The notes under the pieces were generated by a model. That model searched no databases and was not told the origin of the DNA. It saw only the letters and a program-made list of their open reading frames with translations. From a virus, in IMG/VR virus record IMGVR_UViG_3300029989_000005: a stretch of 64,000 nucleotides of DNA; one strand, given 5' to 3'. The position numbers and the translations under genes were made by a program. Shown piece after piece: positions 7,976 to 56,423 of this stretch (positions within the stretch are counted from its first letter, which is position 1; the number at the start of each line of letters is the position of its first letter).

Positions 7976-8075
7976 ATATAGTAACTAATTAATTTTACAA
8001 TTTTATACATTCGTATGCTTAGAAGTGTCAATTTGATATAAATTATGTCAGTTTGTCATAATGTCAGTTTATTAT

Positions 8076-8203
8076 AAATTATGTCAGTTTGACAGTTAAA
8101 TTATTAAAAGATGTTAAAATTATGCTTTTTGTGTTAAGGTTTGTTAAAAATTATACGAACTGACATATATAATAATAAATTTGGCACGATTTTTGTAGTA
8201 ATT
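8076..8203 (+). promoter_or_regulatory. Duplicated regulatory cassette, copy 1: TGTCA-N3-TGACA palindrome plus sigma54-like TGGCAC-N5-TTGT
   Basis: Near-identical to 10435-10564; tggcacgatttttgta at 8182-8197; further TGTCA sites at 8026-8070. Confidence 0.7.
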
Positions 8204-50347: not shown

Positions 50348-50385
50348 TACGGTAAAGCACATGAAAAAGTTAAGAATATATTCAC

Positions 50386-55210: not shown

Positions 55211-55915
55211 TTAGTAGACTTTAAGTGATTTTTCTAACTGTTTTTCCTCAATCCTCTGTTTCATTAGTGTAAACATTGATTCATCTTTTTCAATCATTAT
55301 GAAATGTCTTCCCATTTCCAAACATGCTACACCTGTTGTACCACTACCTGCAAACATATCTAGAATTACATCTCCCTCGTCTGAGTGAATTGAAAGTATA
55401 TCTTTGATTAGCCAAATGGGTTTTTGTGTCATATGACCTACTTTTTCACTTTTCTTGGTAAGTCCACCTTTGAATTCAGGTATTTGATATTTTTCACTTT
55501 GACTATTGAAAACCCATTTAGCCTTTTTATTGGTACACCAAATAGCAACCTCATAATCTGTTATATATCTTCGATTTCTGTTTCTAGGCATTGGATTAGT
55601 TTTCTTCCATCTCAACATGTCTTTGATAACTAATCCGACACTTTCGCAATATTTCGCAATCTCTCCGATGTTTTTCCAATCATTAAAAATAATCACAGAA
55701 CCATTCTTGGATAGTATTCTAGGTATTTCATCGATGTATGAAAACATATCAAAATCCTTATCCCAATCTCCAAAATCTATTCCCGACCTACCCATGGTTT
55801 TAAAGTTATTTTTCCGAGATATAACATAAGGTGGGTCAGTAAGTACGAGATTTACGCTGTGGTCTTTAATTAATTTCATTTCGGTTATACAATCACCTAA
55901 AATCATTTTATCCAT
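55211..55915 (-). CDS. Beta-class N6-adenine DNA methyltransferase
   Basis: LTDPPY, HMTQKP and DMFAGSGTT motifs. Confidence 0.9.
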   Translation of the reverse strand: MDKMILGDCITEMKLIKDHSVNLVLTDPPYVISRKNNFKTMGRSGIDFGDWDKDFDMFSYIDEIPRILSKNGSVIIFNDWKNIGEIAKYCESVGLVIKDMLRWKKTNPMPRNRNRRYITDYEVAIWCTNKKAKWVFNSQSEKYQIPEFKGGLTKKSEKVGHMTQKPIWLIKDILSIHSDEGDVILDMFAGSGTTGVACLEMGRHFIMIEKDESMFTLMKQRIEEKQLEKSLKVY

Positions 55916-55937: not shown

Positions 55938-56096
55938 TGATAATTGTAGGACTTGAGCCTACAAGGGGCTTTTGCCTCCACAGTAACCATATCCTCCGAC
56001 TTATTAGGTACATCCTGCAGCCTATGTCAATTCATTAAGACCATTCCATTCACTTTCGTTACTAGGTTAGTGTTTACCATTTCTCGGCAAATTATC
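55938..56096 (-). ncRNA. tRNA-like RNA (Leu/Ser-type frame) with a ~75-nt structured insertion in place of the anticodon loop
   Basis: Acceptor stem GATAATT/AATTATC plus A73; T-arm GTAGG-CTCAAGT-CCTAC; TGGTAAAC D-loop; variable-arm hairpin; TAACC/GGTTA stem. Confidence 0.6.
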
Positions 56097-56423
56097 AGTT
56101 TATCATTTATATTTGAAAACCACCAAAGGTATCCAAGAGATATTCAGAAATATTCCAAATTTGCCGAGAAATATCAGACATATCTCAGAGGCTTTCCCTT
56201 GAATTCAAAGTTTTAAAGTTATGTCAGTAAGTGAGATAGGAAATGAGTTCAAGGAATATGGCAAAAAGTTTCAAAGAGATAGTAAGAGAGGTCAAATATA
56301 TGGACAATATGGGGGATATATATTATATACTATTATGTCAGTTGAAAATTATTAATACAGAGATAACAATACCAAGTCTGAATATCTTTAACATCTTTTA
56401 ACTTAATTATGATATATGTCAGT

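Follow-up and report, generated by a model that had tools for sequence, protein, structure and literature searches.

What is a tRNA-shaped element doing in a phage genome if it has no anticodon loop with which to read a codon? The question is raised by a 159-nucleotide (nt) element on the minus strand of a 64,000-nt stretch of IMG/VR virus record IMGVR_UViG_3300029989_000005, which we call the window. Its host is a metagenomic T4-like phage whose genome is available as a 90-kb IMG/VR fragment, estimated to be 52% complete, with a T4 gp23-like capsid protein. We tentatively hypothesize, with a little less than even confidence, that the element is a non-decoding RNA derived from a class II transfer RNA (tRNA) of leucine or tyrosine type with discriminator A73, and that it is matured like a tRNA.

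Architecture of the element

The element consists of the following parts, in which an element position p corresponds to window coordinate 56097 - p.

55938..56096, minus strand: the whole tRNA-like element, 159 nt, defined by sequence reading, pair check and motif scan
56090..56096, minus strand: 5' strand of the acceptor stem, GAUAAUU, element positions 1-7, pairing 7/7 Watson-Crick with 55939-55945
56070..56089, minus strand: U8 G9 and D-loop-like CCGAGAAAUGGUAAACAC, element positions 8-27, with G18G19 and an A20a-like A
56065..56069, minus strand: 5' strand of the inner (anticodon-stem-like) helix, UAACC, element positions 28-32, with 5 Watson-Crick pairs to 55984-55988
55989..56064, minus strand: 76-nt insert in the place of the anticodon loop, element positions 33-108, without a match to any Rfam family
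55984..55988, minus strand: 3' strand of the inner helix, GGUUA, element positions 109-113, by pair-by-pair check
55963..55983, minus strand: variable region of 21 nt with hairpin GGC-AAAA-GCC, element positions 114-134, pair probability 0.99
55946..55962, minus strand: T-arm GUAGG-CUCAAGU-CCUAC, element positions 135-151, with C54 U55 C56 A57 A58
55938..55945, minus strand: 3' strand of the acceptor stem, AAUUAUC, and discriminator A, element positions 152-159, by pair-by-pair check

Checked pair by pair, the four retained helices hold 20/20 Watson-Crick pairs. The initial annotation of this locus had described the acceptor stem, discriminator A, T8G9, inner stem, variable hairpin and a T-arm with C54, all of which are borne out by this check. 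Its further statements, that the element has no good D-stem, encodes no CCA and carries about 75 nt in place of an anticodon loop, hold on the minus strand as well. When the RNA is folded on its own by partition function, its acceptor stem, T-arm and variable hairpin all form; the outer 5 acceptor pairs have a pair probability of 0.85-1.0, and the inner stem only about 0.35. On paper the inner stem can be extended by 24-26 / 115-117, spanning a C-C mismatch.

The D-loop-like segment reads GAGAAAUGGUAAAC and contains the GG. The D-stem is absent: at most 1 of 3-4 pairs is in register in the pair check, and the drawing made by ARAGORN has a single pair. The T-stem pairs 5/5 around a CUCAAGU loop in which U55, C56, A57 and A58 are canonical and position 54 is C, not T/U. 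No CCA is encoded at the 3' end, which says little, because the phage's own tRNA-Met and transfer-messenger RNA (tmRNA) do not encode one either; all three RNAs share an A followed by C at this end.

In canonical numbering the insert starts directly after position 37. Its size is 71-76 nt, with 76 nt between the two inner-stem strands, and a usable 7-nt anticodon loop with U33 is absent. Two features stand out within it.

56005..56024, minus strand: the sole robust hairpin of the insert, UAGG-C-UGCA / UGUA-CCUA, element positions 73-92, pair probability about 0.9 in every transcript context folded
56023..56035, minus strand: box AUGAAUUGACAUA, element positions 62-74, identical to a box in two promoter-like modules at genome positions 1288 and 4099

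The structure of the insert is otherwise weak. The initial annotation had drawn a GAAA-capped hairpin and a long irregular hairpin here. The 73-92 part of the latter stands, but its outer stem (67-71 / 97-101) pairs on paper and is missing from both the minimum-free-energy and the centroid folds, and the GAAA hairpin amounts to 2 pairs. A hammerhead or other small ribozyme was also considered for the insert and set aside, as Rfam gave no match and the core motifs are absent. Separately, the insert includes a 5-codon frame, GCU GCA GGA UGU ACC, followed by UAA UAA (56001-56021, minus strand); it lies inside the most stable hairpin and resembles a tmRNA tag frame in form only. The plus strand has an 87-residue open reading frame (ORF) spanning the element, which we dropped as a gene candidate because its sequence resembles a low-complexity translation.

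Chance expectation

How often would such an arrangement arise by chance? The motif sought was a 7-base-pair (bp) acceptor stem in direct contact with a T-stem of 5 bp that closes an NTCRANN loop. As the null model, the 90-kb genome was dinucleotide-shuffled 1758 times and searched on both strands. An all-Watson-Crick acceptor stem and T-arm with this loop is expected 0.11 times per shuffled genome. The expectation drops to 0.007 when U8 and the D-loop GG are added, and to 0.001 with an in-register 5-bp inner stem as well. The real genome has one match to the full motif, which is the element. A looser motif allowing one G-U per stem finds tRNA-Met, the tmRNA, the element and one poor match only, and the three clean matches share one strand.

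The motif definition was chosen after the element had been seen, and about 250,000 windows had been scanned for findings. Even so, a chance origin of the architecture is unlikely, because the rarity among shuffles comes together with the intergenic position, the strand, the discriminator and the variable hairpin.

Kinship to class II tRNAs

If the architecture is not accidental, from which kind of tRNA does it derive? A covariance model built from the element's single sequence (R1) was run on real tRNA clusters with filters off and gave the following scores.

T4 tRNA-Leu: 29.6 bits
E. coli leuW: 24.6 bits
E. coli leuV/Q: 21.2 bits
T4 tRNA-Ser: 21.0 bits (Ser range 13.8-21.0)
tRNA-Tyr of a related phage: 20.8 bits
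E. coli leuP: 20.4 bits
class I tRNAs (Thr, His, Lys, Gln, Pro, Gly, Ile): 13.8 bits or less, with tRNA-Met not listed

The R1 alignments cover the D-loop (UGGUAAA), the end of the variable arm (CCUUG), the T-arm and A73, and the D-loop-like segment aligns with the D-loops of tRNA-Leu from both T4 and E. coli. Because the matches fall on these parts, we read the frame of the element, from its sequence, as that of a long-arm class II tRNA with A73, of the leucine or tyrosine type. This specificity, together with the chance test, supports the initial annotation in its suggestion of an interrupted tRNA or a tRNA mimic.

Like class II tRNA-Leu, the element has a 7-bp acceptor stem, U8 G9, discriminator A73, a D-loop of the same type (GAAAUGGUAAAC, against AAAUUGGUAAA in T4 tRNA-Leu), a 21-nt variable region whose hairpin ends in CCUUG right before the T-stem, and a T-loop of the form xUCAAGU. 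It differs from class II tRNA-Leu in having no D-stem, C54 for U54, no usable anticodon loop, 76 nt between the anticodon-stem strands and just one G-C pair in the acceptor stem.

The requirements of leucyl-tRNA synthetase (LeuRS) are A73, G18G19, A20a and D/T-loop contacts, with a dispensable anticodon arm, and E. coli tRNA-Leu variants without anticodon and variable arms are still charged (PMC9976931). The identity set also includes A15-U48 and U54:A58 (PMC9976931). The element carries A73, the GG, an A following GGU and a U that precedes the T-stem. It has C for U54, and for want of a D-stem the identity of positions 14-15 is ambiguous.

Some observations on the phage's relatives may be recorded here. 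One relative has a lone, unusual tRNA of 87 nt at genome positions 128581-128667. Its variable arm is long, its D-arm weak and its anticodon UUG, and its T-stem GUAGG/CCUAC is identical to that of the element. More distant relatives have 7-tRNA clusters and, in addition, elements of only 66-69 nt whose acceptor stem and T-arm are perfect and which ARAGORN does not call.

144700-144768, one distant relative: short acceptor/T-arm element
106294-106362 and 109766-109831, another distant relative: short acceptor/T-arm elements

An antisense leader and a competing fold

Whether the acceptor stem can form depends, in our folds, on where the transcript begins. Two upstream features bear on this.

56158..56172, minus strand: leader segment AUUUCUCGGCAAAUU, a perfect 15-nt antisense of element positions 4-18 (56079-56093)
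56124..56159, minus strand: candidate Bacteroidota-type promoter TTTG-N24-TACCTTTG (consensus from PMC7366714)

The antisense copy lies 64 nt upstream of its target, and the other arm of the repeat falls on the element's acceptor strand and D-loop. A shuffled genome is expected to hold 0.04 perfect inverted repeats of at least 15 nt with loops of at most 100 nt, and this one is the only long-loop case in the real genome; the others are tight hairpins that we read as terminator-like. A miniature transposable element bounded by the repeat was considered and rejected, since the 15-mer is found only as this pair. The acceptor stem forms in folds of the 159-mer alone or with up to 60 nt of leader. 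In transcripts that include the antisense arm, a 16-bp leader hairpin (56158-56173 with 56078-56093) forms and the probability of the acceptor stem goes to 0.

The candidate promoter begins inside the antisense arm, its TTTG covering the final two bases of that arm, and extends to a -7 box that stops 27 nt short of G1. The two boxes stand further apart than in the Bacteroidota consensus (PMC7366714), and the assignment of the host to a phylum is an inference from domain content. The full TTTG-N24-TACCTTTG motif occurs 8 times on this strand of the genome.

A proposed non-decoding RNA with a tRNA body

How might such an RNA be made? The element stands directly ahead of a gene on its own strand.

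55211..55915, minus strand: gene for a DpnA-like N6/N4 DNA methyltransferase (PF01555), with its start codon 22 nt after the element

The acceptor/T-arm helix is all that RNase P, 3' trimming and the CCA-adding enzyme require. We propose that transcription on the gene strand would start between the antisense leader and G1, or that the element would be transcribed as a portion of the methyltransferase leader. RNase P would then recognize the stacked acceptor/T-arm helix and cut at G1, and the 3' end would be trimmed to the discriminator before CCA addition. The products would be a stable tRNA-shaped RNA of about 160 nt and a methyltransferase mRNA left with a leader of about 21 nt, its 5' end thus set. 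In read-through transcripts, the antisense leader would lock the 5' half and block the tRNA fold. Unable to decode, the RNA would function by resembling a tRNA, most likely as a decoy or a binding partner of proteins that recognize class II tRNAs by their body, variable arm or acceptor end.

The element retains the acceptor/T-arm helix, the D-loop GG, A73 and the variable hairpin, and the parts it has lost are those needed only for decoding. Neutral decay that erased the D-stem should, in our inference, also have damaged the other 20 pairs, and the pattern is uneven for decay. It is because of the retained parts for processing and LeuRS recognition, this uneven loss and the phage's other tRNA-shaped RNAs that we favor a non-decoding tRNA-like RNA.

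What would the look-alike be directed against? The initial annotation had suggested a decoy against anticodon nucleases. That appears to be a poor fit, because no anticodon loop is presented, and a decoy for readers of the tRNA body, variable arm or acceptor end would fit better. By analogy, a decoy against nucleases that read class II tRNA bodies is plausible, because Septu and PtuAB cut tRNA-Tyr (PMC13096335, PMC11555353). A more specific version is that the element is an anticodon-less mimic of leucine or tyrosine type that is CCA-tailed and either charged by LeuRS or bound by a Septu/PtuAB-like nuclease, serving as a decoy or as a carrier of amino acids for non-ribosomal use, with the antisense leader as a switch set by the start site. 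We regard this combination as unlikely.

A number of results weigh against the hypothesis of a matured, non-decoding RNA. The whole element folds no more stably than its shuffles (z = -0.43), C54 disrupts the U54:A58 contact used by LeuRS and by the T-loop fold, and with at least 80 nt of leader in the transcript the acceptor stem is predicted not to form. Rfam gives no match at gathering score and none that is tRNA-like at E up to 10, even with a 176-nt search space, and ARAGORN at default settings calls no gene at the element. No homologue was found by BLAST and model R1 in five related phage genomes picked by capsid protein (four of them read whole), which returned noise only, as did blastn against INPHARED. 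In IMG/VR, metagenome contigs and species genomes, exact and gapped patterns matched only by chance, in coding DNA, and the model rejected these matches. The other genomes scanned likewise contain no sequence resembling the element. The closest complete relative, with a capsid protein 86% identical, is without the whole island that holds the element, its flanks lying about 240 nt apart. Among the other contigs of this phage the sequence is either the same or changed at a single base in 6.2 kb, outside the element. Finally, part of the insert may act as DNA, because its box is common to promoter-like modules.

Alternative explanations

The main rival is that the element is a dead class II tRNA gene. 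Under this explanation about 75 nt, possibly with a promoter box, were inserted into or replaced the anticodon loop, and the remnant is neutral DNA in a fast-changing island. We consider this less probable than not by a clear distance, though a real prospect. It would account for the missing anticodon loop and D-stem, the ordinary fold stability and the C54 of the T-loop, and it agrees with the lack of conservation in our searches and with a nearest relative that does not have the island. It would also accommodate the 13-nt box ATGAATTGACATA of the insert, which recurs unchanged in two other places in the genome, within sigma-54-like promoter modules. However, it must explain how 20/20 pairs stay intact in four helices while the D-stem is fully lost, and it leaves the perfect 15-nt antisense copy (0.04 expected) unexplained. 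Nor would gene death settle the matter of processing, as the minihelix would still be cut by RNase P, so that a dead gene and a processing signal are compatible.

The two modules that share the box are paralogous (genome 1288-1375 and 4099-4180) and consist of ATGAATTGACATA, then a sigma-54-like TGGCAC-N5-TTGT, then ATTTAAAAAATAGAAATTATG. The A-rich stretch of both recurs just after the element and also ahead of other start codons.

It is rather improbable, in our judgment, that the gap is regulatory DNA or a leader hairpin for the methyltransferase unit, in which the 16-bp leader hairpin is the real feature and the cloverleaf pairs are accidental. Three ACTGACATA boxes upstream and the ATGAATTGACATA box do link the gap to the genome's other control regions, the inverted repeat dominates all folds of longer transcripts, and among about 250,000 windows scanned some chance tRNA-like motifs are expected. 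Accidental pairing of this kind, however, is expected about 0.001 times per genome before position, strand, discriminator A and variable hairpin are counted, and model R1 picks class II tRNAs in T4, E. coli and a related phage, which a chance motif would not do.

Could the element instead be a functional tRNA with an unconventional intron? Here 69-71 nt after position 37 would be removed by proteins or a ribozyme, leaving a tRNA that reads GUA (Tyr, with A33) or AGU. The insert does begin exactly after position 37, the classical intron site, and C32 U33 A34 G35 U36 A37 fits Y32-U33-NNN-R37. Both products would be defective, however, with A33 or a 4-bp stem with a C-C mismatch, and neither has a D-stem. 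All anticodon-loop readings of the element are flawed in this way, by A33 or by the 4-bp stem giving AGU. ARAGORN with introns allowed, a check named in the initial annotation, calls no gene at the element, and 0/1578 single-deletion variants are called a tRNA at the default or 95% threshold. At the 90% threshold the deletion variants give mixed defective calls only (Tyr with A33, Asn with two G-G mismatches, and others). A reading with the insertion in the D-loop and a CCGA/UCGG D-stem was rejected, as its anticodon stem would contain two G-G mismatches and U33 would be lacking.

Nor is a splicing route apparent. Rfam holds no group I or other ribozyme match for the insert, which at 71-76 nt is too short for a group I intron, as the initial annotation had stated. 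Visual inspection of the element found no bulge-helix-bulge, that is, a 4-bp helix flanked by 3-nt bulges, and none could be drawn. The 90-kb record yielded no RtcB or T4-type RNA ligase in what was a weak search, since the record is 52% complete and the ligase control was silent in every genome. With no group I match, bulge-helix-bulge, ARAGORN intron call or restoring deletion, the intron-containing tRNA offered by the initial annotation is unsupported, and we judge a spliced, working tRNA very improbable.

The element matches no tmRNA in Rfam at E up to 10 and receives no call in the tmRNA mode of ARAGORN, in contrast to the genome's true tmRNA, which scores 70.6 bits in Rfam. Its 3:70 pair is U-A; the initial annotation was right that G3:U70 is missing. 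A miniature tmRNA-like rescuer, with a D-stem-less tRNA-like domain, a long inner helix and the 5-codon frame at 56001-56021, is scarcely credible: the topology resembles the tRNA-like domain of tmRNA, the frame opens with an Ala codon and closes with a double UAA, and the phage already encodes a tmRNA, but G3:U70, any Rfam or ARAGORN tmRNA match and pseudoknots are all lacking, the frame is buried in the most stable hairpin, UAAUAA is frequent in AT-rich DNA, and no SmpB gene is found in the 52%-complete record.

Two further candidates were rejected. A bacterial Y RNA of the YrlA type has no Rfam match here, and the ends of the element form a 7-bp acceptor stem, not a long stem. An attP-type copy of the 3' half of a host tRNA has no exact match in the species genomes. 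By the defining features examined, the element thus lies outside tRNA, tmRNA, Y RNA and intron-bearing tRNA, and no confident match to a known Rfam family, which would have spoken against the initial annotation, was found.

Comparison with known systems

T4 species 1 RNA is a stable tRNA-like RNA whose function is unexplained and which is produced via the tRNA-processing route. Encoded by rnaC (139 nt), it resembles the element in coming from a T4-type phage, in its length class (about 140-160 nt), in its canonical T-arm GGGUUCGAAUCCC beside a closing stem of the two ends, and in the hairpins that replace the D and anticodon arms. The likeness is one of general build only, as there is no detectable likeness in sequence or model (R1 = 5.4 bits). 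The T4 RNA folds far better than its shuffles (z = -4.6, against -0.4 for the element) and lies in a tRNA cluster, whereas the element stands alone ahead of a methyltransferase gene. If our hypothesis is true, the element would be a distant functional counterpart for this RNA.

A second comparison is with processing signals. The t-elements of plant mitochondria are tRNA-like processing signals in mRNAs, with mapped cleavage sites (PMC1920247). These and the mascRNA module of MALAT1 resemble the element as acceptor/T-arm mimics adjoining an mRNA end. A signal of this type would let RNase P and 3' enzymes set the transcript end and would free a small tRNA-shaped by-product. The t-elements and mascRNA have mapped cleavage sites, whereas the cuts at the element are proposed. 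A t-element-type signal in phage mRNAs is not documented in the papers searched.

The tRNA-like domain of tmRNA shares with the element an acceptor stem, a stem-less D-loop, a long helix into a central domain, a T-arm and discriminator A. The element is unlike tmRNA in having no G3:U70, no pseudoknots and no credible tag frame, and in its extra variable hairpin.

The fourth comparison is with phage tRNAs that act in defense. The tRNA-Tyr of T5 acts against retron-Eco7 PtuAB (PMC11555353), and that of T6 against Septu, which cuts the variable loop (PMC13096335). Like the element, they are phage genes in an accessory region with a class II body and variable arm and a plausible role in conflicts over tRNA. 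They are, however, working replacements of the depleted tRNA. The element cannot decode and therefore could act only as a sponge or decoy. In other words, phage tRNAs are known as counter-defense by replacing tRNAs destroyed by nucleases, and the element, if our hypothesis is true, would represent mimicry instead of replacement. It would also provide a natural example in which an antisense leader controls tRNA folding. If it is a freshly broken tRNA gene it is ordinary, and useful only as a warning that tRNA finders miss such remnants.

Genomic setting

The element lies on the coding strand in a 508-nt non-coding gap, the largest among tightly packed small minus-strand genes. It belongs to a 14-kb accessory island (genome 24705-38856, or about window position 50350 to beyond 64,000) made up of roughly 40 small orphan genes and the methyltransferase. 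The neighboring small proteins have no family matches. Relatives of the methyltransferase (65-71%) have different neighborhoods, and the gaps ahead of them, none longer than 133 nt, could not accommodate the element; neither the upstream 76-residue gene nor the 291-residue gene has relatives through which synteny could be followed. The closest relative has no tRNA and no tmRNA.

Upstream of the element the gap has the features of a control region.

56220..56423, minus strand: upstream control region with three ACTGACATA boxes (56220-56228, 56334-56342, 56415-56423)
8044-8052 and 8080-8088, minus strand, and 8159-8167, plus strand: the other ACTGACATA boxes in the window

Six such boxes in the window compare with 0.69 expected, and the 90-kb genome has 9 in four clusters, in intergenic control regions. 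A regulator of phage or host origin probably binds to these boxes. A 44-residue ORF on the plus strand of the same gap (56221-56355) was called a gene by one public pipeline on an identical contig, and the gap around the element may hold a small divergent gene.

The other tRNA-shaped RNAs of the phage lie outside the window.

L075:15877-16435, 90-kb genome: tRNA-Met and tmRNA
L075:13215-13330, 90-kb genome: second unannotated tRNA-like RNA, just after a 298-residue ORF

On the same strand as the element, the tRNA-Met (CAU; Rfam 67.7 bits) is followed 128 nt further by the full tmRNA, which has G3:U70 and a 25-residue tag ending in AFAA. The second tRNA-like RNA has no Rfam match at gathering score. 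It has a 16-bp closing stem around a D-like hairpin, a T-arm UUUGG-UUCGAUU-CCAAA and an 8-bp hairpin, a build like that of Y RNA, and it folds with z = -2.96 relative to shuffles.

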